64,000 nt of DNA from Candidatus Omnitrophota bacterium (GTDB lineage Bacteria > Omnitrophota > Gorgyraeia > Gygaellales > Profunditerraquicolaceae). The DNA is taken from NCBI GenBank assembly GCA_041651115.1, contig JBAZJY010000002.1, positions 350,855-414,854 of the forward strand, in the 5' to 3' direction. The notes beneath the pieces are model-generated. The model did not search any database. It saw only the letters and a program-made list of their open reading frames with translations, and was not told the DNA's origin. Position 1 is the first letter of the stretch; each line of letters starts with the position of its first letter. This document shows positions 16,672-33,669 of this stretch, piece after piece. The position numbers and the translations under genes are program-made.

Positions 16672-16746
16672 GCCGAGGTAGCTCAGTGGTAGAGCGCGGC
16701 CCTGAAAAGGCCGGCGTGGGGGGTCCGATTCCCTCCCTCGGCACCA
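16672..16746 (+). tRNA. tRNA-Phe (anticodon GAA)
   Basis: Cloverleaf folded by hand: acceptor GCCGAGG/CCTCGGC, D-arm GCTCAGTGGTAGAGC, anticodon loop CTGAAAA, CCA encoded. Confidence 0.85.
16724..16743. repeat. attL: 20 bp core (tccgattccctccctcggca) inside the tRNA-Phe 3' end
   Basis: Identical 20-mer recurs at 33650..33669. Confidence 0.8.
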
Positions 16747-18080: not shown

Positions 18081-18815
18081 TTGAAATTAGTTAGGTTAAA
18101 AATTTTAGTTTTGCCAGTTTTCACAAAAGAAAGGAATGACAAAATGGAAGACTTTAGAATTAAATACCGGCCACAAGATATGTCAGAAATTTGGGGCAAT
18201 GAATGTTTGAAAAAAAGATGGGCTGGGTATCTAAGGAGAAAATCTCCGCCTAAATCCATAATCTTGCACGGTAACTACGGCGTAGGCAAAACTACCCTAG
18301 CAAGGATTATTGGAGGGGATATCTTAAAACTCAGAGATAATAATTTTGGTTTATCTGGGGGTTTTCACGAATTGGATTCAACTAAGCTTGATTCTGAAAA
18401 CCTAAGAGGGTTTTTATCTAAGATTACGGGATATGTTCATGGAACTACGGTGTTGTTTTTTGACGAATTCCAAAGGATGCCCCCAAAGGCCCAAGAGATA
18501 CTTTTAAAGCCCGTTGAAGAGGACGACGATCTGTTTTGTGTCTTTGCAACAACGGATATGAACAGCATAGACGGCGGTATCCAATCAAGAAGCGATAAAT
18601 TCATCATCCAAAAACCCTCAATGGCGATCCTGATAGAGAAGCTTACTGAAATAGCCGAAAAAGAGGATATTGAGATTACGAAGGAAGCCTTGGGGTTTCT
18701 CATCGAGTTAGCTGATTATTCTCCACGCGAGTGCTTGGGGAATCTCTATTCTTTTGGGGGTTCCGATGGCATTATTGACGGAAAAGTGGTGCAACAATTC
18801 TTAAACCCTGATTAA
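18081..18815 (+). CDS. AAA+ ATPase, clamp-loader (DnaX/RFC-small)-like
   Basis: HGNYGVGKTTLARII Walker A, LFFDEFQRM Walker B, CVFATTD sensor-1. Confidence 0.6.
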   Translation: MKLVRLKILVLPVFTKERNDKMEDFRIKYRPQDMSEIWGNECLKKRWAGYLRRKSPPKSIILHGNYGVGKTTLARIIGGDILKLRDNNFGLSGGFHELDSTKLDSENLRGFLSKITGYVHGTTVLFFDEFQRMPPKAQEILLKPVEEDDDLFCVFATTDMNSIDGGIQSRSDKFIIQKPSMAILIEKLTEIAEKEDIEITKEALGFLIELADYSPRECLGNLYSFGGSDGIIDGKVVQQFLNPD

Positions 18816-19036
18816 GCAATAAAATTTTAAAATTCTCCGACGAGAAAATAAATTTAACTAAAAAATCCCTTGACAAATATTATCCGCTATGGTTTTTATT
18901 TATTTGTAGATGTGATGTAACATACTGTAAATAAATGAGTTATGTGTCAGGAGCGAAGCAGGGAATTATCAATTTTTCTCTGTAGCAAGAGCAATATAGG
19001 CATTATTAAACTTTTTCTCCGTGAGAGGAATAGATA

Positions 19037-20275
19037 TTGTCCGATTCAAAGAATAGAACTCCCCGGAGCCATATTTATAGGCGTCACAGGATGCACAGCC
19101 AGTCAATCATTGAACTGGAGCAGGCGATGCTGCCCGTCAAAGCGGCGATGCAGGCGCGCGGGCTCAATATCTGCTTGGAAAAATTAGATAGCCTAATCAA
19201 TAAGATTAACCATGAAAAATCAGACATAGAGTCTAACCTTCGCTCAAGCCTCGGCATTAAGGGCGAGATAAATTTCAACAGCTCAAAGGATATCGCGGTC
19301 ATTCTTTCCGCGGCCTTAGGGGTTAAATTGCTTAAGAGCCGCAGCGGTAGATTTATTACGAACAGGCAGGTTCTCCAAAATTTCAATAATCCTTTGACTG
19401 AAACTATTGCCCAATATCGCAACCTGCAAAAGATTTTGTCTTCCCTAACGGCTGTTTATGGAGCAACTGACAAAGCGGAAGCTAAACTATCCTGCATCTA
19501 TACTGATGATTGCCCCAGCGGTCGGCTTTATACCAAAAACTACAACATCCAAGGCATCGGCGAACTCTGCCGTGGTGTCGTTTATCCTGATGAGGGCTGT
19601 TCGTTTATCTTAGCGGACTACGATAGTTTTGAATTGCGAATTCTTAGCGCACTTGCCCACGATACCTATTTTAAAGACTGCTGGTCTAAAGGTTTGGATT
19701 TACACCGTAAAGTAGTCAGTGATATGAAAGGGATTCCCTACGAATCCGTAACTGCTAAGGAACGCAAACTCGGAAAATGTCTCAATTTCGGTCTTGCATA
19801 CGGTCAGGAGCCTCATGGATTGGCGCGTAATCTCCGTATTCCCGTTTCTGAGTCTTCTAAGTTAATGGCTGGCTATAAAAACAAGATTCCTAAGATTGAA
19901 GAATTTAAACGGGAGTCAATCCGTTCAGCGCATATCACCGGCTACACTAAGACTTACTACGGTCGCAAGCGCCTGCTTCCTGAAATCCTATCTTCTAATC
20001 TCCTCGATGCAAAGAAAGCTGAGCGGCAAGTCATTAATACCAAGATCCAAGGCACAGGGGCAGACATTGTTAAATTCAGCTTAGTTAAATTACATAACGC
20101 CGGGTTTAAAATAGACACCATGTTACACGACGGGATTTTAATTACGGTCTCAGACGATAAGGTCGACAGCAGCATTCAGAAGATCAGGGAAATTATGGAG
20201 ATAGAAATTGAAGGGATGAAATTTACTACTTCTATCAAAACCGGGAAGACGTGGGGCCAATGTCACCAATCTTAA
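19037..20275 (+). CDS. Family-A DNA polymerase, polymerase domain only (no exonuclease domains)
   Basis: Motif A ADYDSFELRIL, motif B KLGKCLNFGLAYG, motif C MLHDGIL; TTG start at 19037 or ATG at 19091. Confidence 0.75.
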   Translation: MSDSKNRTPRSHIYRRHRMHSQSIIELEQAMLPVKAAMQARGLNICLEKLDSLINKINHEKSDIESNLRSSLGIKGEINFNSSKDIAVILSAALGVKLLKSRSGRFITNRQVLQNFNNPLTETIAQYRNLQKILSSLTAVYGATDKAEAKLSCIYTDDCPSGRLYTKNYNIQGIGELCRGVVYPDEGCSFILADYDSFELRILSALAHDTYFKDCWSKGLDLHRKVVSDMKGIPYESVTAKERKLGKCLNFGLAYGQEPHGLARNLRIPVSESSKLMAGYKNKIPKIEEFKRESIRSAHITGYTKTYYGRKRLLPEILSSNLLDAKKAERQVINTKIQGTGADIVKFSLVKLHNAGFKIDTMLHDGILITVSDDKVDSSIQKIREIMEIEIEGMKFTTSIKTGKTWGQCHQS

Positions 20276-20293
20276 ATAACAGGCTTAATCAAA

Positions 20294-20427
20294 TTTTTAA
20301 CTTTTTTGGGCTGGCAAAAAGCTACCTGTTTATTGTGTATGGTCATAGTTTGACTTGTGCTGGGAGATTTTATGCTGATAAATGATTTTACCTTTTGAGC
20401 CAAAAATAACCCAACCTATGCCCTGTT
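20294..20427. repeat. 134 bp direct repeat, copy 1
   Basis: Perfect match to 24463..24596; contains promoter-like TTGACT-N17-TGCTGATAAAT. Confidence 0.9.
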
Positions 20428-20439
20428 AGAGTTTTTCTT

Positions 20440-20745
20440 ATGAAACTGTTACCGAAAGAACTGGCACAAAAGATACCTAATCTCTATTCGCAGGAATATA
20501 AGGGCGAAGAGGCGTTGGTTTATATTAAATTATTCGATCCCTGCAGTAACTGGGCATGGTTTGCCACGGAATTTGATGGTGAGGATACTTTTTTCGGATT
20601 AGTGATTGGCCATTTTACAGAACTGGGCTATTTCAGCTTAAAAGAATTAGAGAGTTTTCGCAACCGTCTTGGGCTGGGTATTGAAAGGGATTTGCATTTT
20701 ACACCTATGACTCTAAAGGAAGTGAGGGAAGTAAATGGCTGCTAG
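20440..20745 (+). CDS. DUF2958-like conserved phage/plasmid protein
   Basis: LPxLYSQE...KLFDP..NWAWFATEFDGEDTFFGLV..ELGYFSL.ELE....LGLGIERDLHF pattern recalled from plasmid/ICE proteins. Confidence 0.5.
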   Translation: MKLLPKELAQKIPNLYSQEYKGEEALVYIKLFDPCSNWAWFATEFDGEDTFFGLVIGHFTELGYFSLKELESFRNRLGLGIERDLHFTPMTLKEVREVNGC

Positions 20746-20793
20746 GTCTATATTTTTATTGATAATTATTCTGCCGGTAGTATCATAATTCCT

Positions 20794-21399
20794 ATGACAA
20801 TACAAGAGCGCTACGAAGCATTAAAAGGTAAAGTCGTTAAGAGAAAGAAGGAATTCGATTCCTTCATAAAGATGTTGGAGTCAGAGTCAAGTTGGCTCAC
20901 AAGTCCGGCAAGCACGAGGTTCCATTTGAACAAAGAAGGTGGGCTTTTGGAGCATAGTGTTGGCGTTACTGAAACTCTCCTGAAATTCAGAGAGTTCCTC
21001 GCTCCTCAAATATCAGAGGAATCTTGCGTAATTGTTGGGCTTCTTCACGATGTCGGCAAGATAGGCATGCCTGGCAAACCTAGGTATTTGAAGAATGATA
21101 ACCAATGGGAGATCGATAAACGAGGTATTACCTATAAGATCAACCCCGCAGAGGTAGATATGAATCTTGCCGCACGCAGCTTGTATCTCATTGCAAAATA
21201 TATCCCGCTTTCTGACTCAGAGGCCCAAGCTGTTCTTTATCACGATGGCCAATTTTTAGATTTTAACAAGGAAGTGGCGCATAAAGAGACGCCCTTGACT
21301 CTTTTAGCGCATTGGGCTGATTACTGGACGGCGCATATCTATGAAGAAGGCCGTAGCATTAATGAAGATAGTGATTATTATACTGGAGATAGAAAATAA
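20794..21399 (+). CDS. HD-domain phosphohydrolase
   Basis: H..H, LLHDVGK and a late D motif of the HD superfamily. Confidence 0.7.
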   Translation: MTIQERYEALKGKVVKRKKEFDSFIKMLESESSWLTSPASTRFHLNKEGGLLEHSVGVTETLLKFREFLAPQISEESCVIVGLLHDVGKIGMPGKPRYLKNDNQWEIDKRGITYKINPAEVDMNLAARSLYLIAKYIPLSDSEAQAVLYHDGQFLDFNKEVAHKETPLTLLAHWADYWTAHIYEEGRSINEDSDYYTGDRK

Positions 21400-21401
21400 A
21401 T

Positions 21402-22355
21402 ATGTATCAACCAATGCATTCAGATTTTCTTATACACTGGACAGGCAAGGACATTGATGCAAAATATGACCCTAGGTGGTATACAGGACATTCATCGCGG
21501 ACAAGTGAGAAGGCTATCAAGTTATATTTGCAGCGTCTTAAAGGCATCTTATACCACGGCTTGTGGATGACAAAGCGCAGAGAAGATGAGACGGTTGTTA
21601 TTTATGATAACAATGGGAAGAGAAGAAAAATTAAGAGACCAGAAACAGCGAGGATATGTTTTACTGAATTGCGGCTGTCTGACGCGCGGGCTCATGCGAA
21701 AAAGTTTGGAAGGTTAGGTATTGGATTTAAAAGATTTTTTGTATTCAACCTTTTAGGAGCTCCCGTGGTCTATTTTCATCCTCAGAGAGCTAACTGGTTT
21801 TTTCCTCCTTATTTCGACTGGTTCAAAAAGATTGGCAAGGAAGCGTATTTCTCATGTTTTTTGAAAAAGATGGGGGAGAAAGATAGGAAAGACAGGACTT
21901 GGAAGTATAAGTTTTTCGATGAATCAGAATGGCGCGTAGTGTATTCTCCAGAGATTAAAGAAAAATTAGTAAGTATGGGGAGAACTGATGTATGTTCCGG
22001 ATTTAAAGAATCCGGAGATAAAGAATTTAAGAGGCTTGAAAGATATTTAGAAAAGACTGGCATAAAGGAGAGGCCGAGTTATCTCATTCCTATAAATCCA
22101 TCTCGGTGGTTCGCTATGATCATTTATCCTAGTTTAGCTGTAAAAGTCATAGCCGAAAGGGATCCCGATATTAGAAGAATTATAAATAAACTGAAATCTG
22201 GCAGAGAGAGCGTGGATGGGATGGAAGCAACCATCAGCAAAGATTGGCCATCAGGGGTATCTTCCGTCGGAGCTATCGGGAAGGCCAAATCGGCTTCCCT
22301 TGAAGATTTTAATCTGCCAATTCAGATTGACTTAGACGCTTGTAGAAATTTCTAG
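21402..22355 (+). CDS. Hypothetical protein (317 aa), function unknown
   Basis: ORF translationally coupled to the HD gene (stop and start 2 nt apart). Confidence 0.5.
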   Translation: MYQPMHSDFLIHWTGKDIDAKYDPRWYTGHSSRTSEKAIKLYLQRLKGILYHGLWMTKRREDETVVIYDNNGKRRKIKRPETARICFTELRLSDARAHAKKFGRLGIGFKRFFVFNLLGAPVVYFHPQRANWFFPPYFDWFKKIGKEAYFSCFLKKMGEKDRKDRTWKYKFFDESEWRVVYSPEIKEKLVSMGRTDVCSGFKESGDKEFKRLERYLEKTGIKERPSYLIPINPSRWFAMIIYPSLAVKVIAERDPDIRRIINKLKSGRESVDGMEATISKDWPSGVSSVGAIGKAKSASLEDFNLPIQIDLDACRNF

Positions 22356-22371
22356 AAACTAGAAAGGCAGT

Positions 22372-23136
22372 ATGAATATACTTATTACAAATGACGATGG
22401 TATCAATTCTGATGGTATCTTCACTTTGTTCGAAGCGGTTAAAGAGCTTGGTAATGTAACCGTTGTAGCCCCTGATTCAGAACGAAGTGCCGCGGGCCAT
22501 GCTATAACGATATCCGATCCTTTGCGCGTGAAGACAGTGAACCGTAACGGTAAGTTTTTTGGATATGCGTGTTCAGGGACACCGGCGGACTGCGTCAAAC
22601 TAGCTGTAAGGGCATTGATGAAGGATAAACCCGACATAGTCATATCCGGGGTTAATCTGGGCCCAAACACTGGTTTTAGTGTTTTATACTCTGGTACGGT
22701 ATCAGGAGCAACTGAGGGTGCAATATTAGGCATACCAGCCTTTGCAATATCTCTGGGAACTTTCGATAACCCTGATTTTAGTATAGCAGCTGAATTTGCC
22801 AAAAAATTAGTAGTTCTGCTTAGAGAAAAAGGTCTTCCGAAGGGAACCCTGTTAAATGTCAATATCCCTGCTGTAAAAAATAGAAATGATATCAGAGGCA
22901 TAAAGGTTACTACTCAAAGCAAGACTTCATTGGTAGAGCATTTCGATAAGCGGGAGGATCCCCGTAAACACGTCTATTACTGGCTTACAGGTGAGCTGAT
23001 AGAGTTGGACGGGGAGGAAGATAGTGACATCAAAGCACTACGGGATAATTTTATCTCCATAAGCCCCGTTCATTGTGATATGACTAACCGCGCCTTTATC
23101 GATGAGCTAAAGAAGTGGGATTTTGAGAGGCGTTAA
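22372..23136 (+). CDS. surE: 5'/3'-nucleotidase SurE
   Basis: MNILITNDDGINSDGI N-terminus and a SurE-like core. Confidence 0.85.
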   Translation: MNILITNDDGINSDGIFTLFEAVKELGNVTVVAPDSERSAAGHAITISDPLRVKTVNRNGKFFGYACSGTPADCVKLAVRALMKDKPDIVISGVNLGPNTGFSVLYSGTVSGATEGAILGIPAFAISLGTFDNPDFSIAAEFAKKLVVLLREKGLPKGTLLNVNIPAVKNRNDIRGIKVTTQSKTSLVEHFDKREDPRKHVYYWLTGELIELDGEEDSDIKALRDNFISISPVHCDMTNRAFIDELKKWDFERR

Positions 23137-24206
23137 AATATATTAAAGGCCCGGCTGCAACCCAAGCTTTTGTTTTTTAAATACCAGCCTAAATTATCCA
23201 ATTCTCTATTGTCTTTTACGATCTGTTCGTAAATGTCCTCCCAAGTCAGATGGGTAAACCGCTTTTTGTATTCAGCTTTTAACATAGAGCGGACATTACG
23301 CATAACAGGCATGCTTTCAGGCTCGCCGCGCTTTAAATTCATCGCGTGCCTGTTCCTTAAGTTCACTACATACCATCTTTTCGCGCCTTCCAAATGAGCC
23401 ATTGATGCAGCGAATACAATATTCCTAAATAGCTGCTCGTAGAATGGGTTCGGCATATCACTAAAATCAAATATGCTGTTAGTATCTATTAGTTTGTTAT
23501 GGGTGCAGTATCTCGTTATTGACCTATCTGCTGCTTTTGGCTTTTCGCCCTCAACATCTTCTTTTTCTTTTGCTATAGAGTTTTTACTCCCAAACTTAGC
23601 CTCTATACATATGATAACCTTATTCGGGACGACAAGCATTATGTCCGGTTCAGTAGCGAATCGCTTTATATCACTTTCAAGGTGCTTGCGAACATCTAAT
23701 AGAGGGGCGTAAGGCGTGAATTTATTGTTTTTAAGATCAATCTTTCCGCCCCACAGATACAAGTCTACCTTATCCTTTATATCTTCATTGATTATTTGGC
23801 TCGCTAGTTTATTTAGCGCCAGTCCGTTTGATAGTAGCTCCGTAAATACATTGTAAGATACCGCATCTTCGCTGTTTTCATAGCACAGCCTTCCAGATTC
23901 CATTTTGTTGCCTTTTTTGAAGAAATTTGCTATGTAGTATTCTCCATTGAATAATAAATTACGCTTGGTGGCGGTCAGCAGGTTTGAGTCAAAGGGCCCA
24001 TTATAATATACGAATCCATTGGTATGTATCCGCAGGCCGTGTTCAGGGCAGAAGGGTAAATATCTCATTTTACCCTTGAAGCGCTGGAAGGGAACCTTAT
24101 GGCTATGGGTATCTGATGAGCAGTTTTTGATTGGGCAGCTATTAGGAAGTCTCGTTTTTTGAAGGTCGTTTCTGAAGAATGATATTGTGCAGCTTGAATC
24201 GGGCAT
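23133..24206 (-). CDS. PD-(D/E)xK-type nuclease with N-terminal Cys-rich (Zn-ribbon-like) region
   Basis: PDIMLVV...IICIEAKF matches a D..(D/E)xK core; CPIKNC...CPEHG; convergent with surE. Confidence 0.5.
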   Translation of the reverse strand: MPDSSCTISFFRNDLQKTRLPNSCPIKNCSSDTHSHKVPFQRFKGKMRYLPFCPEHGLRIHTNGFVYYNGPFDSNLLTATKRNLLFNGEYYIANFFKKGNKMESGRLCYENSEDAVSYNVFTELLSNGLALNKLASQIINEDIKDKVDLYLWGGKIDLKNNKFTPYAPLLDVRKHLESDIKRFATEPDIMLVVPNKVIICIEAKFGSKNSIAKEKEDVEGEKPKAADRSITRYCTHNKLIDTNSIFDFSDMPNPFYEQLFRNIVFAASMAHLEGAKRWYVVNLRNRHAMNLKRGEPESMPVMRNVRSMLKAEYKKRFTHLTWEDIYEQIVKDNRELDNLGWYLKNKSLGCSRAFNIF

Positions 24207-24462
24207 AGGTTATTTTTCATTGTAGCTCCCTAAAATAATAAGGGAGCGCATATCTGCTACCGGCAACGTTCAAGTAAATCCGATAGAGCTGCATTTCTCC
24301 CTGCCCTTTCGGGCAACGAAACAGCTCCACCATACTTGAACGTTCACAGGGCTCTCCCCTGTGTTATGGTAGAAACGAACTGCTCCTGATTGTAAAAACT
24401 AACTAAAGTATATCAGCCGGTTAGGTTATTGTCAATTGAGCTATGTTAGGAAGCATAGTTAT

Positions 24463-24596
24463 TTTTTAACTTTTTTGGGCTGGCAAAAAGCTACCTGTTT
24501 ATTGTGTATGGTCATAGTTTGACTTGTGCTGGGAGATTTTATGCTGATAAATGATTTTACCTTTTGAGCCAAAAATAACCCAACCTATGCCCTGTT
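24463..24596. repeat. 134 bp direct repeat, copy 2
   Basis: Perfect match to 20294..20427. Confidence 0.9.
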
Positions 24597-24648
24597 TCTA
24601 AATATATCCAATCTTAATCAGGCACGTGATGCTTCTAAGTAAAAGCCC

Positions 24649-24676
24649 TTGACTTTTTCAAAATGTAGCATATAAT
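24649..24676 (+). promoter_or_regulatory. Strong sigma70-like promoter (TTGACT, 16 nt spacer, TATAAT)
   Basis: Near-consensus hexamers read from the sequence. Confidence 0.55.
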
Positions 24677-24683
24677 TTTATTC

Positions 24684-24795
24684 AAGATACGATATAGTGG
24701 TGCGTTACGGAGAGGGAACCTCCACTTTAAAAAAGTAAAATCTCCACGAGCCGATTGCTCATGCACATTTGCGCTTGTGGGGATTTTTTATTTTA
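24684..24795 (+). ncRNA. Candidate sRNA (about 110 nt) with its own promoter and intrinsic terminator
   Basis: No ORF; internal ggagaggg/cctcc hairpin; terminator stem tctccacgagc/gcttgtgggga plus TTTTTTATTTT at 24741..24795. Confidence 0.4.
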
Positions 24796-24911
24796 TAGGG
24801 AAATTAGCTTGGTTAATTGACAAGACGAAAGGTAGGTGAATAATCTTTTAGGTATCTTGAGCGACCGAGTTTAAGTATAAAAACTATAAATATTGAAAAC
24901 GGAGGACTTAA

Positions 24912-25142
24912 ATGGGTAAAAATCAGCACGTTGTGCCTTATGGTGATAAGTGGGCAGTTAGAGGTGAGAAAAACAGCAGGATAACTTCTGATCACCACAC
25001 GCAGGGAGCGGCGATTAGTGCTGCAGTAAAAATAGCCAAGCACGAGAAATCAGAAGTAGTGATACACGGCAGGGATGCGAAGATTCGGGATAAAGATAGC
25101 TACGGATCTGATTCTTGCCCGCCAAGAGACAAAAAATATTAA
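24912..25142 (+). CDS. DUF2188-like small protein (paralog 1)
   Basis: NQHVVPYGDKWAV...EVVIHGRDAKIRDKDSYG pattern; paralog at 27304. Confidence 0.6.
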   Translation: MGKNQHVVPYGDKWAVRGEKNSRITSDHHTQGAAISAAVKIAKHEKSEVVIHGRDAKIRDKDSYGSDSCPPRDKKY

Positions 25143-25272
25143 AATACTAGAGGGGCATGAAAATGCCCCTCAGTTCTAATGTATTTTTGTGGCTTATAGA
25201 AGGAAATGGTAATATAATACAATATGAATCATAAGGGATAGTATATACAGATGCAGGACAAGATATCCTAAA

Positions 25273-26019
25273 ATGAAAAATATTGAAACTATAGGTCTTT
25301 TTAAAAAAATATTACAGCCCGCATTTATTATAACTATTGCTACGTGTGTAGGATATCTATGGGGTTGGCATTATATAGATGGTTATTTAGAACGTTTTGG
25401 ATTAAATCATGATTCCTTTGAATTTTCTTTAACCTATTATTTGAATCAGTCGTTCTTTATATCCATTTTTCTTGCAATGATTTTGTTTTTTTCCATAGGT
25501 AGAAAAAAAGATTCTCAGTTGACTATCCCTCAAGCCTTTCAGCAGAACTCAATCATTTTATTATTTTTAGGAATTGGCTTGTCGATGGCATTTAAAGATT
25601 TTCCCTCCCCGAATGCAATAATGATACTGTTAAATTCATTAATTTTGTTAATTTATTTTGTTAGATTAAGCTGTAAGAAAAAAACGATTATCTCGGTTAT
25701 TGAGAATGAAGGGTCGCCAATAGTATTTCTTTTAGCTTTCTTATTAATGATTTTACTAGGACTTTTGATTAGTAGAGATTTCGGAGAAGAACATGCCCGG
25801 AGGACCATCAGTGGCGCACTTAATAATTTATCTTCGATCTCTTTTGTATCTGATAATCCATCAATCACTGATCTCAACAAAAAAGAATTAAATCTTATTT
25901 TTTATCATAATAGTAACTATTATTTAGTTGAAAAAGAACAGCCAGCGCCTAAGTTCCCTAAAATTTTTATTGTTCCAGATAAGAATATAGAGTATGTAAT
26001 TTGTAAAAAATTTAATTAA
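25273..26019 (+). CDS. Hypothetical polytopic membrane protein (AT-rich gene)
   Basis: Multiple hydrophobic segments; very low GC compared with its surroundings. Confidence 0.5.
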   Translation: MKNIETIGLFKKILQPAFIITIATCVGYLWGWHYIDGYLERFGLNHDSFEFSLTYYLNQSFFISIFLAMILFFSIGRKKDSQLTIPQAFQQNSIILLFLGIGLSMAFKDFPSPNAIMILLNSLILLIYFVRLSCKKKTIISVIENEGSPIVFLLAFLLMILLGLLISRDFGEEHARRTISGALNNLSSISFVSDNPSITDLNKKELNLIFYHNSNYYLVEKEQPAPKFPKIFIVPDKNIEYVICKKFN

Positions 26020-26126
26020 TTTATGATTATATAGTAACTCAATGAACCTATGTTAATGGTGATTGTAGGCGTTGGTAAATATCATGGACAGAGAACACGC
26101 TAAACAAAAATGATTAAAGGAACTAT

Positions 26127-27293
26127 ATGCGCAGAGGCATAGTTGATATCGTACAGGAGAATAGCAGGGACATAGAAAGAAAAATTCTTTCTGAGTTCGC
26201 GACAAAAAGTTGTGATGCTTTAAGGCGGTTACCGGAGAAATTAGGCGTTAGGCCCGATTTCTTTAGGGACACGGATAGGATATTGCATTCTAAATGTTAT
26301 GCGAGATATATTGATAAAACACAGGTATTTTATTTATTTGATAATGATGATATTACTCATCGAGTATTACATGTTCAATTTGTCTCTAAGATTGCCAGAA
26401 CCATTGGTAGAGCTTTAAAACTGAATGAAGATTTAATTGAAGCAATAGCGTTAGGGCACGATGTTGGGCACCCTCCCTTTGGGCATGAAGGTGAAAGTTA
26501 CTTAGACGAACTTTGTTTGCATTACAAAATAGGTCATTTTGTTCATAGTGTTCAAGGAGTAATTTTTTTAGACAAAATTGAGAAAAGAATGGAGATAAAA
26601 CCATTGAATTTAAGTTTACAAGTTTTAGATGGCATACTTTGTCATGATGGCGAGAAATTTAATGATTATTTAATACCTCAAAGAAAGAAAACATGGTCAA
26701 CACATTATAATGAACGAAAGGAGAAGATGTTTAACAAGCAAGTAGCGCTCGTTCCAATGACCATGGAGGGTTGTGTTGTTAGATTTGCGGATGTTGTAAG
26801 CTATATTGGAAGAGATATTGAAGACGCTATAACGCTAAGACTAATAAAAAGACAAGATCTGCCAAGGGAATGTACAAAGGTATTAGGGGATAATAACAGA
26901 GATATAATTAACACATTAGTTACCGATTTGATAGAAAACAGCAAAAGAATTGGCGACAGGATATATTATAGTAAAAGAACCTCTAAGGTTTTAAAGAAAC
27001 TTAAGAAATTTAATGACAAAAATATCTACTTGAATAAAAAAATAAAGAGAGAATCCCCAAAAAATAAAAAATTATATACTCTTCTATTCGAAGAATTTCT
27101 TCATGATATAAAAGTAAAAAACAGTAGATCAGAAATATTTACTCAATGGAGTGACATTAAAGATGCCAAGTATATTTCAAAATGTAGACACCCAGAAATC
27201 GTACGCGATTTTTTGTCATCTCTTACAGATGATTATTTTATAGGGCTTTTTGAACGGAAATTTTTCCCAAGAAGATTTGGAATACATTTCTAA
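26127..27293 (+). CDS. dGTP-triphosphohydrolase-like HD-domain protein (Dgt family-like)
   Basis: H..RxxH at the N-terminus, ALGHDVGHPPFGHEGE signature of the dGTPase family, later D motif. Confidence 0.7.
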   Translation: MRRGIVDIVQENSRDIERKILSEFATKSCDALRRLPEKLGVRPDFFRDTDRILHSKCYARYIDKTQVFYLFDNDDITHRVLHVQFVSKIARTIGRALKLNEDLIEAIALGHDVGHPPFGHEGESYLDELCLHYKIGHFVHSVQGVIFLDKIEKRMEIKPLNLSLQVLDGILCHDGEKFNDYLIPQRKKTWSTHYNERKEKMFNKQVALVPMTMEGCVVRFADVVSYIGRDIEDAITLRLIKRQDLPRECTKVLGDNNRDIINTLVTDLIENSKRIGDRIYYSKRTSKVLKKLKKFNDKNIYLNKKIKRESPKNKKLYTLLFEEFLHDIKVKNSRSEIFTQWSDIKDAKYISKCRHPEIVRDFLSSLTDDYFIGLFERKFFPRRFGIHF

Positions 27294-27303
27294 AGGAGGA
27301 GAG

Positions 27304-27534
27304 ATGAGTAGAAACCAACATGTCGTTCCCTACGGAGACAAATGGGCTGTGCGAAAAGAAGGGAATACTAGGATAACATCTTCACACATAACTCGGAGAG
27401 ATGCTATCCATACTGCGAATAGAATTGCTTCGTCGGAAGCTTCTGAAGTGGTTATACATGGTAGAGACGGGAGAATTCGAGATAAAGACAGTTACGGTTA
27501 CGATGCGTTACCACCACGATGCAGGAAATACTAA
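27304..27534 (+). CDS. DUF2188-like small protein (paralog 2)
   Basis: MSRNQHVVPYGDKWAV...EVVIHGRDGRIRDKDSYG; RBS aaggagga; ORF-track start 27250 rejected. Confidence 0.6.
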   Translation: MSRNQHVVPYGDKWAVRKEGNTRITSSHITRRDAIHTANRIASSEASEVVIHGRDGRIRDKDSYGYDALPPRCRKY

Positions 27535-27686
27535 TTTTTAAAGAAAGAGGACTCATTAATCTGAAAGAAATCAAGGCTGTCAAGAGAGGTAGTAGTTGGC
27601 ATGATCTCACCTTTTAATATCGTCAAGAAAGGTCAAAAATATAGCCTTTGTTAATTCCATTTAGTCCCCCCTATAAGTGAATACTA

Positions 27687-27935
27687 TCAAGCTAATTTAC
27701 ACTCGAATTCATCTAAGTCCTGCCGGCTTTTAGCAATGATTTCTTTTATGCATGTCTGGCAGTAAACCTTTCTTCCCATGCTGCCGGGAATAGGAACTAC
27801 AATGCATACAGTTCCTCCGTAAATCGCTGTGTTGCACCTTTTGCAAGTTCGTTTTCCTTTTGCAGTGTCTAATTTTGGCGCTCCATGTGTTCCATTGATA
27901 AGAGAAGGACATTTTCCACGTTTTTTACTTATCAC
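27687..27935 (-). CDS. Small Zn-ribbon protein (82 aa)
   Basis: CKRCN...CIVV...CQTC Cys quartet; directly downstream of the helicase and overlapping it. Confidence 0.45.
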   Translation of the reverse strand: MISKKRGKCPSLINGTHGAPKLDTAKGKRTCKRCNTAIYGGTVCIVVPIPGSMGRKVYCQTCIKEIIAKSRQDLDEFECKLA

Positions 27936-29952
27936 CCTTAGCCTCCTTTTTAGTTAAGCGTCTTGTTAGGACATTGAGAATATTGTCAAGGGCTTCTATC
28001 GCTTTTACATAGTCTTCAGTTCGTAACTTTTCCCGTTCGCCTTTTTCAATTCCGAGCTGCTTATTTACCTCATGATTTATAAGTTGGACAGCGGCTGCAA
28101 AGTTAGGCCCAGTGACTCCACTACTCTGAGCAAGTTTATAGGCTAAATCTTTTCCGTCAAATGAGATGTCCAAGCGATTCAACAATAGTTTTGCCGCTCG
28201 TTTTACCTCTTCATGCAAACGTCGCTTCGCCTCGTTCCTTTGCCGTTGGGGAATTACAGGGAAAGGTATGGTGGATTCCACTTTGTTTATTTTATCCCCT
28301 TGTTTATTTTTGAGGAATTCTGCTATGTCTTGAGCATCAATTCCAAGTGACTCAGCGGTAGCTTTCATTTCTTCGATAAGTATCTCGTCTTCCACATCAA
28401 TGAAATGTTCCTGTAGGAAGCTATCCACTATTTCATTGCGAATGATCGTAGATTCACTAAGTTTTAATCTTGTACTACCTTCAAGCACCTCTCGAGGAGG
28501 CTCGGGTTCTTTGCCTTTAATAATATCTGTGAAGAATTCTCGGTCGTCCCTGTCAATTTCACGGAAATCAGCAAGATGGGTATCTATGTTAAGCCCAATA
28601 TGTGTTACTATGTGACCATAATTATCAGGGTGTCGAGGGTCATTTTGGACGATGACACGCATTACTCGACCAACGAATTGGACATACGGTGGTAGGGTGC
28701 GGAAAGGCCTAAATATAGCTGCAACACTTAAATGAGGGTGGTCAAATCCCTCGCCGAGCATTTGAACTTGGATAATACAATCTAAGGCGCCCGCTCTCAA
28801 TTTATTTAAGACAGCATCTTGCTCATCGGGTAGCATTTTACTATGGATTTCCGCTGCTTCATAACCACGCTCAGCATATAGAGAGCGTATTGCCTTTGCA
28901 TGATTTACTGAACACGCAACTGCTATTAGTTGGTGCTTTGTTCCAGATTGCCGCAGATGTTCGAGTTTGTCGAGACTTGCGTCTACGATATTTTTATTAC
29001 AGACTGGGGATAAAGCCACACCACGACTAAACCATTCTTCATCTTTTAACACCAATACTTCTTCAAGTGTGTGGTATTTTTCATCACCTTCATATGTAAA
29101 ATAGAGTTCTTTAGGTGCGACATATGTTGCCTGTAATTTTTTTATGTAGCCTTTTATCATTGCCCGTTTGAATGAATACTTGTAAATTAGTTCACCTTCA
29201 ATTTCTTGTTGGTCACTTCTGAATGGCGTAGCAGTTAAATTAACAACCTTTGCATCCGGGAATCTACTAAATACTTTTTTCCAACTCGGGGCCGCACTAT
29301 GGTGTCCTTCGTCTACCAGAATCATATCAAAGAAATTATTTGTAAACTGTGGGAGCCAGCGGTCGGCGCTACTCGCCAGTTGCTGTATATTTGTCAAAAC
29401 AAAATGCGACTGTTCGCAATCATGGATGTTGGCATCGATGCTATCGAGAATAGCAAGATACGGGCCGGCTAAGGTTACGTCCGGATTCAGCACCCGGCAT
29501 TTAAACCAGAAGCAGTTTCTACGATTGGCGATATCTAAAGCCTTTCTTAATTCATCTCTGATGGTGAGATTTGGCGCGATCACGAGGATCCTTCCTTGGG
29601 CAATTCCAAGTGGAAGTAACGTAATGAGCCCTGATTTTCCACATCCAACCGGTAATTGAATTAACGCTTTTTTGGCTCCTTTCTCGAAAAAATTACGGGT
29701 TGCTATGTATGCTTCTTTCTGTGGGTCTCTTAATAGTAAATTGTCTTCTATTTTGAAATCCAGCGAAGCAAAGAAATTACCCATGGATTTATTAGCTTTT
29801 ATCCACTTGTCTAATTCAAGAACTTGGAATCGCCACATTTTTCCTACTTTGTGAGCAGGTATCCGGTTGCTCTGCGCAAGTGCGTATAAATTCGTTATGC
29901 TGATATCAAGATATTTTGCTGCTTCCTCTGCGTTTAGCCATTCTTCTCTCAT
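27925..29952 (-). CDS. HTH (excisionase/MerR-like) + SF2 DEAH/ResIII-type helicase
   Basis: N-terminal LNAEEAAKYLDISITNLY...HKVG.MWRF HTH; Walker A PVGCGKSG; DEGH box; TATP motif III; QFVGRVMR motif VI. Confidence 0.75.
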   Translation of the reverse strand: MREEWLNAEEAAKYLDISITNLYALAQSNRIPAHKVGKMWRFQVLELDKWIKANKSMGNFFASLDFKIEDNLLLRDPQKEAYIATRNFFEKGAKKALIQLPVGCGKSGLITLLPLGIAQGRILVIAPNLTIRDELRKALDIANRRNCFWFKCRVLNPDVTLAGPYLAILDSIDANIHDCEQSHFVLTNIQQLASSADRWLPQFTNNFFDMILVDEGHHSAAPSWKKVFSRFPDAKVVNLTATPFRSDQQEIEGELIYKYSFKRAMIKGYIKKLQATYVAPKELYFTYEGDEKYHTLEEVLVLKDEEWFSRGVALSPVCNKNIVDASLDKLEHLRQSGTKHQLIAVACSVNHAKAIRSLYAERGYEAAEIHSKMLPDEQDAVLNKLRAGALDCIIQVQMLGEGFDHPHLSVAAIFRPFRTLPPYVQFVGRVMRVIVQNDPRHPDNYGHIVTHIGLNIDTHLADFREIDRDDREFFTDIIKGKEPEPPREVLEGSTRLKLSESTIIRNEIVDSFLQEHFIDVEDEILIEEMKATAESLGIDAQDIAEFLKNKQGDKINKVESTIPFPVIPQRQRNEAKRRLHEEVKRAAKLLLNRLDISFDGKDLAYKLAQSSGVTGPNFAAAVQLINHEVNKQLGIEKGEREKLRTEDYVKAIEALDNILNVLTRRLTKKEAKGDK

Positions 29953-29990
29953 CGTAGCCTCCTTTGATAACTGATTTCATAATACCATAT

Positions 29991-30052
29991 TTAAATACGA
30001 TGTCAATTAGTATTATTTAGTATCATTTAGTATCATTTAGAGTTATTTATTA
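29991..30052. repeat. Short tandem/iteron-like repeats (tatcatttag family) in a divergent promoter region
   Basis: attagtattatttag / tatcatttag / tatcatttag / agttatttat in series. Confidence 0.5.
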
Positions 30053-30296
30053 ATGGGGTAGATATTTAAATCTAAAAGATTTCTTTGGGTAGCTGCGTTG
30101 AAATACTCAAGTTTTCTCTAAAAAACTTTTACCTTTTTAGCATAACTCCCCTCGGCATAAGCAGTTAGTAAATTCCTTCCATTCATTTCAGAGTTAATTT
30201 CCGTCGGTAAAATTACATAAAAGGTTAAAACTTTTTTACATTTTTCATTGACAAATAAGTACCATATGGTTCTTATATTGTTAGGAGGTGATTGTT

Positions 30297-31112
30297 ATGA
30301 ATTCCGACGAGATTGCGGTTGGCTATATACGAGTTAGCAGTATCAATCAGGTGGAAAATGGTGGTGGTTTGGCTATCCAGAGGAAGAAGATAACCAACTT
30401 CTGCAGAGAAAAAGGCTACAATCTAGAACGTTTCTACGAAGAAAGGGGAATTTCCGGCAGCATTAAAGAACGCCCTGCGTTATTAAGATTGTTAAAGGAC
30501 TGCGAGTCTGGTTTAATCAAAAGGGTAGTAGTTTTTCGTCAGGATAGGTTAGCTCGTGAATTAACAGTTTCCCTCTGGCTCGAGACTCAATTCAAGAAAT
30601 ATGATGTAGCAGTCAGCTCAGTTCTGGATCCAGAACTCGATATGAATGACCCGCTGCAGCTCGCTTTTAAAAGGCTGATTGATGTGTTTGCTGAATTAGA
30701 GAAAACACTTATTGTGACCCGTCTTAGAGAAGGCCGGGTTGATAAGGCCGAGAATGGACGTAGAGCTGTCGGTGCAATTGCTTTTGGCTATTATAAAGAG
30801 AAAGACGGTTTGGTTGTTAACCTTGAAGAATCCGAATGGGTGAAAAAGATTTTTCGGAACGCAGCTAAGGGAAAGAAATACTCAGAGATTGTGGCGATGC
30901 TTAAAAAGAACGGCGTAGTTACACGGCGAAAGAAACCGTTCAGTATTGAAACAGTTAAGTATGTCTTACGAAACTCTTTTTATTATGGTGAGTCAACCTA
31001 CGGCGATATAAAGAGCAGGGGGGAGCATAGGCCTATTATTAGTAAACGACTTTTTGTTAGAGTTCAAAAGGTCAAAAGGAAAGAAGTATTGTTACCAGCT
31101 AGGGTTTCGTAG
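30297..31112 (+). CDS. Serine recombinase (resolvase/invertase family)
   Basis: VGYIRVSS catalytic Ser motif, RLARE; RBS aggagg 8 nt upstream of ATG 30297. Confidence 0.8.
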   Translation: MNSDEIAVGYIRVSSINQVENGGGLAIQRKKITNFCREKGYNLERFYEERGISGSIKERPALLRLLKDCESGLIKRVVVFRQDRLARELTVSLWLETQFKKYDVAVSSVLDPELDMNDPLQLAFKRLIDVFAELEKTLIVTRLREGRVDKAENGRRAVGAIAFGYYKEKDGLVVNLEESEWVKKIFRNAAKGKKYSEIVAMLKKNGVVTRRKKPFSIETVKYVLRNSFYYGESTYGDIKSRGEHRPIISKRLFVRVQKVKRKEVLLPARVS

Positions 31113-31631
31113 TTCGTTGATGTTCATTTTTTCCGAATGGCTCTGGAATTCTGGCATATGAGGCCAACAGGATACTTCCTGAAGTCGCTTTAAATGTTCT
31201 TGAGTGACGATTAGTGATTCCCGTTTTTTCCCGTTGCGAAGAAGGCTTCTAAAGAATTGACGCCTTAAATAATAATCAAGTTTCTTAGCATTTTTAAGGT
31301 AAGAATCGTAATCCTCAGGGTCATCATGGACTTTTCTAATCCAGTCGATTATTGTATTGGGTCGGGTATTAAGCGCGCGGGCAATATCGATAATACGCAT
31401 CCCGTTATTGTATCGACCAATTGCATCATCGAATTTATCGGGTGACACGCGCATTCCTTTGAAAAATGGCTCTTGAAGTAGCGTGAATGCTTTTTTGCAG
31501 CTTCGACAGTAAATCCTCTGCACTGCGGGTTTATTTTTCAACCTGCGTTTCCCGTAATAAATAGCGATTTTGTGACATTCTGGACAAGGTTCTTTGTAAG
31601 GCATAGGTAGATTATACCGCAGAAACGCCAA
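31092..31631 (-). CDS. InsA-like Zn-ribbon + HTH protein (IS1-type transposase N-terminal fragment or regulator)
   Basis: CPEC...CRSCKKAF Zn ribbon followed by an HTH (IIDIARALNTRPNTI). Confidence 0.45.
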   Translation of the reverse strand: MAFLRYNLPMPYKEPCPECHKIAIYYGKRRLKNKPAVQRIYCRSCKKAFTLLQEPFFKGMRVSPDKFDDAIGRYNNGMRIIDIARALNTRPNTIIDWIRKVHDDPEDYDSYLKNAKKLDYYLRRQFFRSLLRNGKKRESLIVTQEHLKRLQEVSCWPHMPEFQSHSEKMNINELRNPSW

Positions 31632-31833
31632 CTGTCAAGCGATATAAAACGACAGCTAACCGATATAGGAGTCTTTATTGATTAAAAATATTTTTTTTCT
31701 GGTTCTGTAACTTATTGTATAACAGGATGATGCATCATTGAATTTTTTTAAAGTTTTTCTGAATTGGTGCGTATTAATTCTGAAGGGGGGAGTTCAGACA
31801 CGGTTAGTTCCCCTCAGAAGGAGGTGAGGTTAG

Positions 31834-32016
31834 ATGGAGCGCTTTATTAAGGTTGAGTGTTTGAGATGTGGTGAGCAATACTATATACCAGCGTATAAGC
31901 TCCCGCAAGAAAAGGCAGAGATTCTTGATGCAGCTTTCCCTAGCAGGTGTCCCTTTTGCGAAGATAGCGATTACGCTGTATTAACAGTTCCAAACGAACT
32001 TAAGAAAAGGAAATAA
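31834..32016 (+). CDS. Small Zn-ribbon protein (60 aa)
   Basis: CLRCG...CPFC; strong RBS aggaggtgag. Confidence 0.35.
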   Translation: MERFIKVECLRCGEQYYIPAYKLPQEKAEILDAAFPSRCPFCEDSDYAVLTVPNELKKRK

Positions 32017-32095
32017 CACGGTGCAGCAGGAGTTTGGGTTGTTATCCTGAACTCCTGCTGCCAAAAAATGTAATTTAAGCTATGGAGGTAATCAA

Positions 32096-32320
32096 ATGAA
32101 GGCAATCTGGAATGGCGAAAAGTTATTGATTAGACGCAAACAAGTAGGGTTAACTATGGCTGAATTAGCCGCAAAAGTGGATTGTGACCGGCCATTGGTG
32201 TCAATGTGGGAAGCAGGCAAGGTAGCTCCGTCCGGGCATTTTCTTGTGATGCTCGGCATCACATTGAATATTGAGCCGAAAGAGTTTTATAATCTGGAGG
32301 ACGAAGGAGTGCAGCTATGA
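32096..32320 (+). CDS. XRE/Cro-type HTH regulator
   Basis: LTMAELAAKVDCDRPLVSMWE HTH. Confidence 0.6.
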   Translation: MKAIWNGEKLLIRRKQVGLTMAELAAKVDCDRPLVSMWEAGKVAPSGHFLVMLGITLNIEPKEFYNLEDEGVQL

Positions 32321-32508
32321 GTAACCTTTTAACTCCAGAGCAAGTATGCGAGAGGTATGGTATAAGCCGGTGGACGCTCTATCAGTGGACATCCAAGCAT
32401 CTTATACCATATCTCAAGATTAGAGGGCTAAACCGTTTCAGGGAAGAAGATCTTGAGAAGTGGGAAGAACAAAATCTGGTAAGCGATGGGAAGGCTGAAT
32501 TGGTATGA
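32317..32508 (+). CDS. xis: Excisionase / AlpA-like HTH protein
   Basis: QVCERYGISRWTLYQW motif; immediately upstream of the integrase and overlapping it. Confidence 0.6.
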   Translation: MSNLLTPEQVCERYGISRWTLYQWTSKHLIPYLKIRGLNRFREEDLEKWEEQNLVSDGKAELV

Positions 32509-33572
32509 GACAGCGTTATCGAATGCCAAAATCTATTTACCCCCGTGGCAACTGGTATTGCTTTAAGGTAACTACTTCTTATGGCAAGAGAGTCGAGGTT
32601 AAGTCAGCCACCATGGAAGAGGCGCGTAAGAAACGCAACGATATAGAGCGTCAGATATTCAGTGCCGTGTCTGGAGATCCATCCTATAGAGTTAGCCTTG
32701 AGCATGGAATAGGGTTTTGGCTAAAAATTAAGAAAGGAAGTATCGACGATACCTCATATGATAGATACCGGGGATGTTTAGATAACTTCCTTGATTATAT
32801 TAAGGCAAAACGCTCCGATTTACAATATTTCGACCAAATAAAAGCGGAGGACATTAAGGCATTTATGGACTATCGGATCGAAGAGAAGGGGCGGGCGACT
32901 AAGACCGTGAATTCTGAAAGGCTGGCTTTATACAACTTATTTCTTACCTTGATTAAACATAAGAAAATTGAAGGTAGTAATCCCGTGGAAAATGTTGACC
33001 CATTAAAAATGATTAAGGTCCAAAAGAGGCATGCTCTTTCTGATGAGGAATTGTTGAAATTTCTTGAGGGTGCCAAGGCAGAAAGCGGGGCTATTAATTG
33101 GTATGCTATCTTTCTTACCTTATATATAACCGGCATGAGAAGGGATGAGGTTCGGAAGATGGAGAAAACAGCAATAGACCTGTCCAGAAATCTGATAATT
33201 ATTTTGAACACCAAAACCGATAAGCCAAAGATCATACCGATACATCCTGAATTGCGGCCAGTATTGCAGCAGGCGTTGGGGCAGTCCAATAGCGGCTTGG
33301 TATTTCCTAACTCTAAAGGCGGGCTGCTTCATAAGAACAAAATTCGGGATAAGATGATTCAGATATGTGAGAGGGTCGGTATCCCTAAAGCAACGGTTCA
33401 CGATTTACGCCATACATTCGCGAGCCGCCCAGAATTATCCGGTATGGCCAAGCAACTTATAGGCGGTTGGAGCAGCAAGCAGGTAATGGAGAAAACCTAT
33501 ATTCACGCCCCCGAGGATTATGTTCGAGATGAGTATTTTAAGGTTAAGTTCATACCGAAGGCAGGAAACTAA
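32505..33572 (+). CDS. int: Tyrosine integrase (phage integrase family)
   Basis: Conserved R...HDLRHTFAS...Y catalytic region; adjacent to attR. Confidence 0.85.
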   Translation: MRQRYRMPKSIYPRGNWYCFKVTTSYGKRVEVKSATMEEARKKRNDIERQIFSAVSGDPSYRVSLEHGIGFWLKIKKGSIDDTSYDRYRGCLDNFLDYIKAKRSDLQYFDQIKAEDIKAFMDYRIEEKGRATKTVNSERLALYNLFLTLIKHKKIEGSNPVENVDPLKMIKVQKRHALSDEELLKFLEGAKAESGAINWYAIFLTLYITGMRRDEVRKMEKTAIDLSRNLIIILNTKTDKPKIIPIHPELRPVLQQALGQSNSGLVFPNSKGGLLHKNKIRDKMIQICERVGIPKATVHDLRHTFASRPELSGMAKQLIGGWSSKQVMEKTYIHAPEDYVRDEYFKVKFIPKAGN

Positions 33573-33649
33573 TGTCACGCTATCGTCACGAAAGGATGTT
33601 GCAAATGTCAGAACCTTCTGATAATATAGATAATTATGCAAAACCGGGA

Positions 33650-33669
33650 TCCGATTCCCTCCCTCGGCA
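33650..33669. repeat. attR: second copy of the 20 bp tRNA-Phe 3' core
   Basis: tccgattccctccctcggca identical to 16724..16743. Confidence 0.8.

Follow-up and report, generated by a model that had tools for sequence, protein, structure and literature searches.

Known SF2 motors and the gene pair of the Omnitrophota window

RadD, XPB and SauUSI are the described DNA motors that come closest, both by sequence (phmmer) and by fold (Foldseek), to a putative DNA translocase encoded in a 64-kb stretch of a Candidatus Omnitrophota genome (contig JBAZJY010000002.1; the whole stretch at its full length is referred to as the window, and all coordinates are window positions). The translocase gene, which joins a helix-turn-helix (HTH) domain to a superfamily 2 (SF2) helicase core, overlaps a small gene for a zinc-finger protein, and the two genes are inherited, translated and evolving as one unit behind a conserved promoter with phased repeats. 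Promoter/operator, HTH-helicase gene and zinc-finger gene make up an autonomous, horizontally mobile cassette that has been widely transferred across phyla, and the pair can be classed as a new form of the cassettes, known from defence islands, that combine a helicase with a partner.

RadD (E. coli YejH), an SF2 ATPase of DNA repair, ranks first against the RecA-like core with both phmmer (E 9.5e-14) and Foldseek (E 2e-13), while the NCBIfam model of the family (NF053632) scores 78.8 bits against a cut-off of 720, which leaves the protein outside the RadD family. RadD is reported to need its zinc ribbon for function (PMC9049331). In RadD the ribbon is part of the same chain, whereas the zinc module of the cassette is a separate protein, translationally coupled to the motor. 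The cassette helicase is also unlike RadD in its N-terminal HTH_17 domain and its unrelated 240-aa C-terminal region, and RadD is a core gene whereas the cassette is accessory and mobile. XPB, including archaeal XPB-Bax1 and the XPB of TFIIH, has a similar translocase fold (Foldseek E 3e-12) at an identity of only 15–17%. XPB systems combine a motor with a partner as the cassette does, and an anchored-translocase mechanism is plausible for both; however, the partner in XPB-Bax1 is a nuclease, and that of the cassette is an 80-aa zinc finger without a Bax1-like nuclease.

The ResIII and Helicase_C core is also common to the type I HsdR, type IV SauUSI and Dnd/Pbe helicases, which occur in a similar defence-gene setting. 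Partial PADLOC matches to this core (mREase_IV, 54 bits; PbeA, 46 bits) cover residues about 180–433. In contrast to the restriction motors, the cassette is devoid of PD-(D/E)xK, phospholipase D (PLD) and HNH nuclease domains and has no conserved gene for a methylase, a specificity subunit or a Dnd protein in its vicinity, and the curated cut-offs of the restriction families are missed widely. For the neighbourhood comparison, 1,444 open reading frames (ORFs) from 81 loci were clustered all against all, and the 145 immediate neighbours were scanned with Pfam and PADLOC. A type I HsdR is rejected by the EcoAI model (43 bits against 550), by the missing nuclease domain and by the lack of a conserved methylase or specificity gene among the 145 neighbours; a type III Res protein, by the lack of a conserved Mod gene and by matches to the generic ResIII ATPase domain only; and a type IV SauUSI-like enzyme, by mREase_IV and 7clg matches confined to residues about 181–433. 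No threshold of UvrB, type IV restriction or other curated families is reached in PADLOC, NCBIfam or PHROG. The initial annotation had seen no methyltransferase or nuclease partner and no fit to canonical type I or III restriction-modification, and this agrees with the scans, in which no such partner is conserved and no curated threshold is reached.

Hachiman (HamAB), Rst_Helicase-DUF2290 and Shango follow the same logic of an SF2 helicase with a small or uncharacterized partner, and are likewise found in defence islands and on mobile elements; the cassette differs from them in its domain combination, an HTH_17 domain with an XPB/RadD-like motor plus a zinc finger. Such a difference from known helicase defence systems had been proposed from the sequence, and it is borne out by the PADLOC helicase-system models, which neither protein passes. 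Hachiman, Shango, DISARM, Dpd, Pbe and the other PADLOC v2 helicase systems give partial core matches of at most 54 bits and no match to the small partner, and none of their partner genes is conserved among the 145 immediate neighbours. MADS is rejected by its MAD1 model (NF047737, 51.6 bits against a cut-off of 80); 'mad2' or 'mad3' matches occur in only three to four of the 145 neighbours, and the one described in detail encodes a UPF0020-type methyltransferase that resembles mad2 only weakly (E 1.7e-11). A relaxase helicase of the TraI/TrwC type is not supported either, the core being SF2, with no relaxase domain and no constant linkage to conjugation genes.

Architecture of the helicase and its zinc-finger partner

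The two genes and their domains are arranged as follows.

27925..29952 (including the stop codon), minus strand: gene 1, HTH_17-fused SF2 helicase/translocase, XPB/RadD-like, 675 aa (ORF, Pfam, homologues)
29791..29940, minus strand: HTH_17 (excisionase/MerR-type) DNA-binding domain, residues 5–54 (Pfam, TIGR01764)
29218..29736, minus strand: RecA-like domain 1 (ResIII), residues 73–245, with Walker A GCGKSG, VDEGHH and TATP (Pfam)
28654..28968, minus strand: RecA-like domain 2 (Helicase_C), residues 329–433, with motif VI QFVGRVMR (Pfam)
27928..28653, minus strand: conserved C-terminal region of about 240 aa, with HPDNYG..THIGLN.D, an acidic linker and a helical bundle (two alignments)
27942..27946, minus strand: Shine-Dalgarno GGAGG of gene 2, within the 3' end of gene 1 and 6 nt ahead of the GTG start (sequence)
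27687..27935, minus strand: gene 2, zinc-finger partner, 82 aa, GTG start (ORF and comparative genomics)

Both ORFs lie where the initial annotation had placed them (675 aa at 27925–29952 and 82 aa at 27687–27935, both on the minus strand), and the excisionase/MerR-like HTH and helicase core that it read from the motifs are confirmed. The HTH_17 domain reaches 49.3 bits with PF12728 (E 6e-13, cut-off 27), and the N-terminus also passes the TIGR01764 'excisionase' domain model with 41 bits (cut-off 28.8); its residues L22, Y23 and Q27 are invariant among the aligned homologues. Both RecA-like domains exceed their Pfam cut-offs (ResIII, E 7e-25 and 88 bits; Helicase_C, E 3e-13 and 51 bits), and the presence of motifs I, II, III and VI across the two domains identifies an SF2 protein. 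In a 20-sequence alignment, G103, G105, K106, G108, VDEGHH at 213–218, TATP at 240–243 and QFVGRxMR at 425–432 are invariant. With all ATPase motifs intact, the motor is predicted to be a double-stranded-DNA translocase of the XPB/RadD/HsdR-like SF2 type, and no nuclease domain was found in it by a Pfam scan. An excisionase or recombination directionality factor was considered for the protein as a whole and rejected, since no consistent pairing with an integrase was found and the island in the window has its own HTH_17 gene beside its integrase.

The part of the helicase after motif VI, described initially as a charged tail of roughly 170 aa, is in fact a conserved domain of about 240 aa. It carries the motif HPDNYG..THxGxNxD across homologues, residues 570–670 are predicted to be helical with a predicted local distance difference test (pLDDT) score of about 80–90, and the PHROG_16 match to the helicase extends to residue 643. 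A profile of these 240 aa found nothing below E 0.5 among PDB sequences, and no RadD chain was matched.

The small gene opens with a GTG at 27935, so that its first 11 nt are shared with the helicase gene, and a Shine-Dalgarno sequence of its own precedes it; the overlapping four-Cys gene of the initial annotation is upheld, with five conserved cysteines (C30, C33, C43, C58 and C61). The placement of the Shine-Dalgarno sequence within the 3' end of gene 1 predicts translational coupling. The protein consists of an N-terminal G-x2-PSLI-G motif, a C30-x2-C33...C43...C58-x2-C61 module and a C-terminal helix, and its family comprises 676 members of 79–100 aa, none with a Pfam domain, in which G6, P9, S10, L11, G17, C30, R32, C43, C58 and C61 are invariant. 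The small ORF has no direct match in Pfam, NCBIfam, PADLOC or PHROG; the case for it as a real gene comes entirely from comparative genomics. No fusion of the zinc finger to another domain was found in an exhaustive profile search of 1.84 billion representatives, where the family matches are stand-alone proteins of 75–110 aa apart from one deletion-fusion and spurious eukaryotic repeats. Weak similarity exists to PARP-type zinc fingers (PARP-1 Zn1/Zn2, DNA ligase III), with the threshold of Pfam zf-PARP (PF00645) missed; PARP-type fingers have CCHC ligands, whereas the cassette partner has Cys4 plus a fifth conserved Cys. This putative resemblance is a lead and does not amount to family membership.

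Conservation and spread of the pair

The helicase search yielded 3,886 homologue clusters (90% identity) at E ≤ 1e-10. The best 120 of these clusters have the same architecture at 664–694 aa and are 62–100% identical over the full length, with labelled sources that include Omnitrophota (the 100% match), Planctomycetota, Thermodesulfobacteriota, Nitrospiraceae, Terriglobales, Syntrophales and the archaeon Methanolobus. Identity across phyla is 62–68% among Omnitrophota, Desulfobacterota, Nitrospirota, Acidobacteriota and archaeal Methanolobus. Counting one genome per species, relatives occur in at least 501 species genomes, with 51–85% identity for the full-length relatives, and the best 80 loci from these genomes were retrieved for comparison. 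Of the intact loci, 78 of 79 have an ORF of 80–100 aa with the same Cys pattern after the helicase gene; in 75 of the 78 this ORF overlaps the helicase stop codon, most commonly by 20 nt. The pairwise identities of helicase and partner are correlated (r = 0.83 over 600 pairs). The two-gene module proposed initially is thus well established, its conservation being much greater than chance would give, and the chance that the small ORF would not accompany the helicase elsewhere is decisively set aside.

The distribution of the cassette is patchy and transfer-driven. Full-length members are carried on plasmids of Rhizobium, Aminobacter, Skermanella and Paracoccus; on the Paracoccus plasmid p2 the cassette adjoins an ArdC-like zincin gene and MobQ, in an alphaproteobacterial integrative and conjugative element (ICE) it lies between a coupling-protein gene and an exonuclease gene, and on Acinetobacter pAC1633-3 the pair is located away from the repM gene. 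In one Syntrophales lineage the pair stands alone between serS and housekeeping genes. A phage origin was considered and rejected, INPHARED holding only distant core-only matches with at most 57% protein coverage; among 2.9 million viral contigs, about 18 contain a relative, which in several cases is situated at the extreme end of the contig.

No model specific for either protein exists in Pfam, NCBIfam (June 2026), PADLOC v2 or PHROG, and no description of the pair was found in a literature search of full texts, including protein accessions, and of the supplement of a guilt-by-embedding preprint. Public annotation labels the helicase 'DEAD/DEAH box helicase', with its neighbour unannotated or 'hypothetical'.

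A conserved promoter with phased repeats

The features upstream of the helicase gene are listed below, together with the divergent neighbour.

29958..29964, minus strand: Shine-Dalgarno AAGGAGG for gene 1 (sequence)
29979..30006, minus strand: predicted sigma-70-like promoter, TTGACA, 16-nt spacer, TG-TATTAT, 11/12 matches, extended -10 (consensus match only)
30003..30052, minus strand: operator-like array of three to four units phased at 10 bp, CTAAATGATA on the gene strand and TATCATTTAG on the plus strand
30288-31112, divergent from the helicase gene: serine recombinase gene

The candidate promoter lies 27 nt upstream of the helicase ATG, and a TTGAC box recurs at the same relative position in homologous loci. 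The upstream regions of homologues have in common the motif T(A/G)TCATTTG(C/A), present in two or three copies with a 10-bp period. Tandems, defined as at least two TRTCRT units spaced by 9–11 nt in the 120 nt that precede the start codon, were present upstream of the helicase in 34 of 77 non-redundant loci, against a mean of 0.05 of 77 in control windows from the same loci; a strict 8-mer was found in 47 of 72 upstream regions and in 4 of 72 downstream regions. The first unit starts 12–14 nt after the TTGAC box in 25 of 32 forward-oriented cases, so that the array spans the -10 region and the transcription start. In the window the motif is inverted relative to the homologous loci and the array abuts the -35 box from directly upstream, as the sole such tandem in the 64 kb. 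Operator-type repeat arrays were recorded at 30003–30052 of the window and as TGTCATTTGCTATCATTTG arrays.

The initial annotation had pictured the helicase gene as transcribed divergently from the serine recombinase gene across an iteron-like repeat region. The geometry stands, with a spacer of 335 bp between the two genes, whereas the repeats belong to the helicase promoter and the association with the recombinase does not hold. The repeats are assigned to the helicase promoter/operator because the motif recurs upstream of homologues without a nearby recombinase, and the link to the serine recombinase is incidental, as only 12 of 81 loci contain a recombinase from that cluster. The conserved operator is a new finding. 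Most simply, the 'iterons' are the predicted autoregulatory operator of the helicase itself, and on the simplest reading of the sequences the HTH_17 domain would bind the phased repeats and autoregulate the operon. The cassette is not a transposon, since no terminal repeats, whether inverted or direct, flank it and the region downstream shows no enrichment of the operator motif.

Genomic neighbourhood and HTH-less relatives

Across the 81 loci only the helicase and the zinc finger are conserved, and a conserved third gene or effector is therefore rejected. Pfam assigns the 145 immediate neighbours to 102 families, none of which has more than four members. Within 10 kb of the cassette, large serine recombinases are found in 12 of 81 loci and tyrosine integrases in 10, at varying positions, and relaxase or coupling-protein genes in only about five. 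The same interval contains an SNF2 helicase matching DpdE, DrmD and HmaA in eight loci, HmaB (1,579 bits) in four, cyclases of the cyclic-oligonucleotide-based antiphage signalling system (CBASS) in three and PsyrT (E 2e-294) in three, and several type II methylases recur. Type IV secretion genes are also among the neighbours. Judged qualitatively, the setting of the cassette resembles a defence island, in the window as well as elsewhere, and includes genes typical of mobile elements. A co-directional gene follows the zinc-finger gene directly in 24 of 76 loci, each time from a different family (examples are Mrr_cat, PIN_12, SMODS, MazG_C, DUF6119, Trypsin_2, Hypoth_Ymh, M78-Macro and DUF3800), and about two-thirds of the loci, including the window, have no such gene.

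Two loci (L076 12098–20380 and L061 1–9955) show the cassette adjoining Hma-type systems, composed of a DpdE/DrmD/HmaA-like SNF2 helicase and HmaB, with a CBASS cyclase or DUF6119 gene in between. In four others (L026, L036, L060 and L077), among which the named isolates are alphaproteobacterial Manganibacter and Nitratireductor, the same Cys-containing protein of 158–160 aa is encoded directly after the zinc-finger gene, about 238–245 nt after the helicase stop; it has no PADLOC match and may be a lineage-specific third component.

Distant relatives of about 35% identity lack the HTH domain and retain the small partner, which has 73–80 aa and a degenerate first knuckle. Enterobacterial plasmids of 5.9–6.9 kb (L084, L133) carry an overlapping operon of a ColE2-type Rep (Replicase + PriCT_1), the helicase and the partner. 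A Pasteurella prophage (L135 6019–8297) has a 33%-identical relative and a 134-aa ORF directly downstream of, and co-directional with, cI (HTH + S24), and the locus of another distant relative has the order integrase, Gp49 toxin, helicase and zinc-finger gene. The HTH-less relatives thus appear to be driven by the promoter of another gene, plasmid rep or prophage cI. In lambda, rexAB occupies the position directly downstream of the cI repressor gene; the likeness of the prophage relative behind cI(S24) to such lysogen-expressed immunity genes is one of position only, with no sequence relationship. Neither the enterobacterial plasmid relative nor a prophage relative has a match in complete E. 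coli genomes. The initial annotation had also allowed for a known conjugation, mobilisation or replication family. A relaxase-associated helicase was not found, and the only replication link runs through these HTH-less relatives, to which operon linkage with ColE2-type Rep is restricted; members of the subfamily of the window are carried by replicons and chromosomes that have other replication systems, and their repeats overlap the promoter.

The host island and other features of the window

The cassette sits within an integrated island of about 16.9 kb (16720–33669), the edges of which are the 3' end of a tRNA-Phe gene and its direct repeat, the latter just beyond a tyrosine integrase gene. 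The GC content inside the island falls to 0.35–0.41.

16720..16743, plus strand: attL-like 3' end of tRNA-Phe, left island edge (context only)
32096-32320: HTH_3 gene, right end of the island
32317-32508: HTH_17 gene separate from the helicase, beside the integrase, right end of the island
32505-33572: tyrosine integrase gene, right end of the island
33646..33669, plus strand: attR-like repeat, 23/24 identical to the tRNA-Phe 3' end (context only)

The island also encodes a dGTPase (PADLOC E 1e-49), an AbiGi-like protein and REase-ARP. At its left, two AAA-type ATPase genes (16920–18044 and 18081–18815) are followed by a gene for a 412-aa protein with a family-A DNA polymerase domain (19037–20275); such a trio is unusual in an integrative island. 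The two copies of a perfect 134-nt direct repeat (20294–20427 and 24463–24596) bracket a 4.2-kb segment with an HD-domain gene, the AbiGi-like gene, surE and the REase-ARP gene; this segment may be a nested insertion or a recombination cassette. Two DUF2188 paralogues (24912–25142 and 27250–27534), the second of which overlaps the end of the dGTPase gene (26127–27293), enclose a 248-aa multi-pass membrane protein and the dGTPase, and the region 24912–27534 may be a separate small defence module. The serine recombinase of the window is short, with 274 aa comprising Resolvase and Recombinase domains and no zinc-ribbon or C-terminal part, and the 3' end of its gene overlaps a convergent 179-aa IS1 InsA-like zinc/HTH ORF (31092–31631); it may be a truncated large serine recombinase.

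Rfam finds no RNA family inside the two-gene module. Outside the island, a c-di-GMP-I riboswitch lies on the plus strand at 10782–10920 (RF01051, 73 bits against a gathering score of 35). Within 40345–40451, a 27-nt stretch resembling a tRNA 5' end, GCTGGCGTAGCTCAGTT, is repeated 80 nt upstream of tRNA-Thr (40435–40510); neither ARAGORN nor Rfam calls a second tRNA there, and the stretch may be a tRNA remnant.

Possible functions of the cassette

From its genomic context, the cassette is proposed to be a nuclease-free, autonomous defence-type system against incoming phage or plasmid DNA, a proposal that has about an even chance of being right. It draws on the defence-island neighbours, the cargo-like distribution, the relative behind prophage cI and the rarity in phages. 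In such a system, the C-terminal helix of the 80-aa partner would probably dock onto the C-terminal helical bundle of the helicase, and its zinc finger may recognise DNA ends, nicks, gaps or similar features. Once licensed by the partner on DNA that is foreign or aberrant, the motor would translocate along it by means of ATP and thereby prevent its replication or circularisation, clear it of proteins, or pass it to host nucleases. Several points weigh against the proposal. The defence context is qualitative, consisting of lists of neighbours; the cassette contains no nuclease, toxin or other recognisable effector; and the very high conservation across phyla is unusual for arms-race proteins. 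Conjugative plasmids and ICEs are further common carriers of the cassette, which there adjoins genes for relaxases, coupling proteins and ArdC-like proteins, and its enterobacterial HTH-less relatives are translationally linked to ColE2-type Rep. AlphaFold predicts the helicase structure with low confidence (pLDDT 66), leaving RecA2 and residues 396–520 disordered, and the binding of the HTH to the repeats and of the helicase to its partner are both putative. A distinctly tentative and rather doubtful idea is nuclease-free DNA surveillance, in which a prokaryotic PARP-type finger sensing breaks or nicks would license an XPB/RadD-like translocase tethered by the excisionase-type HTH.

Some of the same observations would suit a repair, recombination or establishment factor of mobile elements, which we regard as possible if unlikely. 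The motor would here be a RadD-like accessory whose zinc finger senses gaps or nicks; it would aid its own element in, for instance, second-strand completion after conjugation, RecA-dependent recombination or fork rescue, and foreign DNA would not be attacked. RadD is the best match by sequence and fold and depends on a zinc ribbon, a module supplied here in trans; the absence of a nuclease or toxin and the strong cross-phylum conservation, which fits a universal DNA substrate, point the same way, as do the conjugative plasmids and ICEs that carry the cassette beside TraA, TraG and ArdC-like genes. However, the RadD model gives 79 bits of the 720 demanded, the C-terminal region is unrelated to any solved structure, and the cassette is often chromosomal and solitary or located in defence islands without conjugation genes, while the relative in a prophage cI operon better fits a lysogen-expressed immunity gene. 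It is improbable that the cassette is an anti-defence or establishment gene, its motor countering host restriction or other immunity as cargo near leading regions. The neighbours on Paracoccus p2 (ArdC-like zincin, MobQ), the position between coupling-protein and exonuclease genes in the alphaproteobacterial ICE and the patchy, transfer-driven distribution would agree with it, whereas conjugation genes are absent from most loci, the cassette is nearly absent from phages, and tight autoregulation is predicted from a sigma-70-type promoter rather than early expression from single-stranded DNA. No anti-defence protein is known to have this architecture.

A replication module, modelled on the initiator-helicases of satellites and plasmids, is very improbable; its HTH would recognise the 10-bp repeats as iterons, the SF2 motor would open or unwind the origin and the zinc finger would assist priming. 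Phased iteron-like repeats do lie beside the helicase gene, and the HTH-less relatives in the overlapping Rep (Replicase + PriCT_1) operon of the 5.9–6.9 kb plasmids, with their ColE2-type Rep, keep a role in replication or maintenance alive. Yet the repeats of most loci are placed after the -35 box and ahead of the start codon, over the -10 and transcription start, as an operator would, and the cassette occurs on replicons with their own Rep systems, alone among housekeeping genes and, on pAC1633-3, apart from repM. ColE2 Rep and host Pol I are known to suffice for replication, and XPB/RadD-type SF2 motors are not known to serve as replicative helicases. Least probable of all is an ATP-driven transcriptional switch, in which the HTH-anchored XPB-like translocase would remodel or open promoter DNA like the XPB of TFIIH and control its own expression and that of the variable gene directly downstream. 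The XPB-like helicase, a putative sequence-specific HTH anchor at phased promoter repeats and a variable same-strand gene right after the zinc-finger gene in 24 of 76 loci would all suit such a switch, but about two-thirds of the loci, the window among them, lack a co-directional downstream gene, and the HTH-less relatives retain motor and partner, so that the core function is independent of the anchor.

Significance of the cassette

The family is large and conspicuously conserved, extending over most bacterial phyla and an archaeon, and its minimal unit of about 2.4 kb consists of three testable parts, namely the operator, the HTH-motor and the zinc finger. Cultured donors are available in Rhizobium, Bradyrhizobium, Paraburkholderia, Chryseolinea and Desulfospira and on small plasmids of Klebsiella and Salmonella. 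If its role is in defence, the cassette works without a recognisable nuclease or toxin and would be mechanistically informative; if it serves the maintenance of plasmids and ICEs, it would add to mobile elements a new accessory function that is widespread. In either role, the conserved pair of HTH and operator would offer a ready-made, portable autoregulatory module. Should the cassette act in surveillance, it would represent a new mechanistic class of immunity or genome surveillance that uses motor activity alone, and it could be a prokaryotic relative of the eukaryotic zf-PARP DNA-damage sensor.

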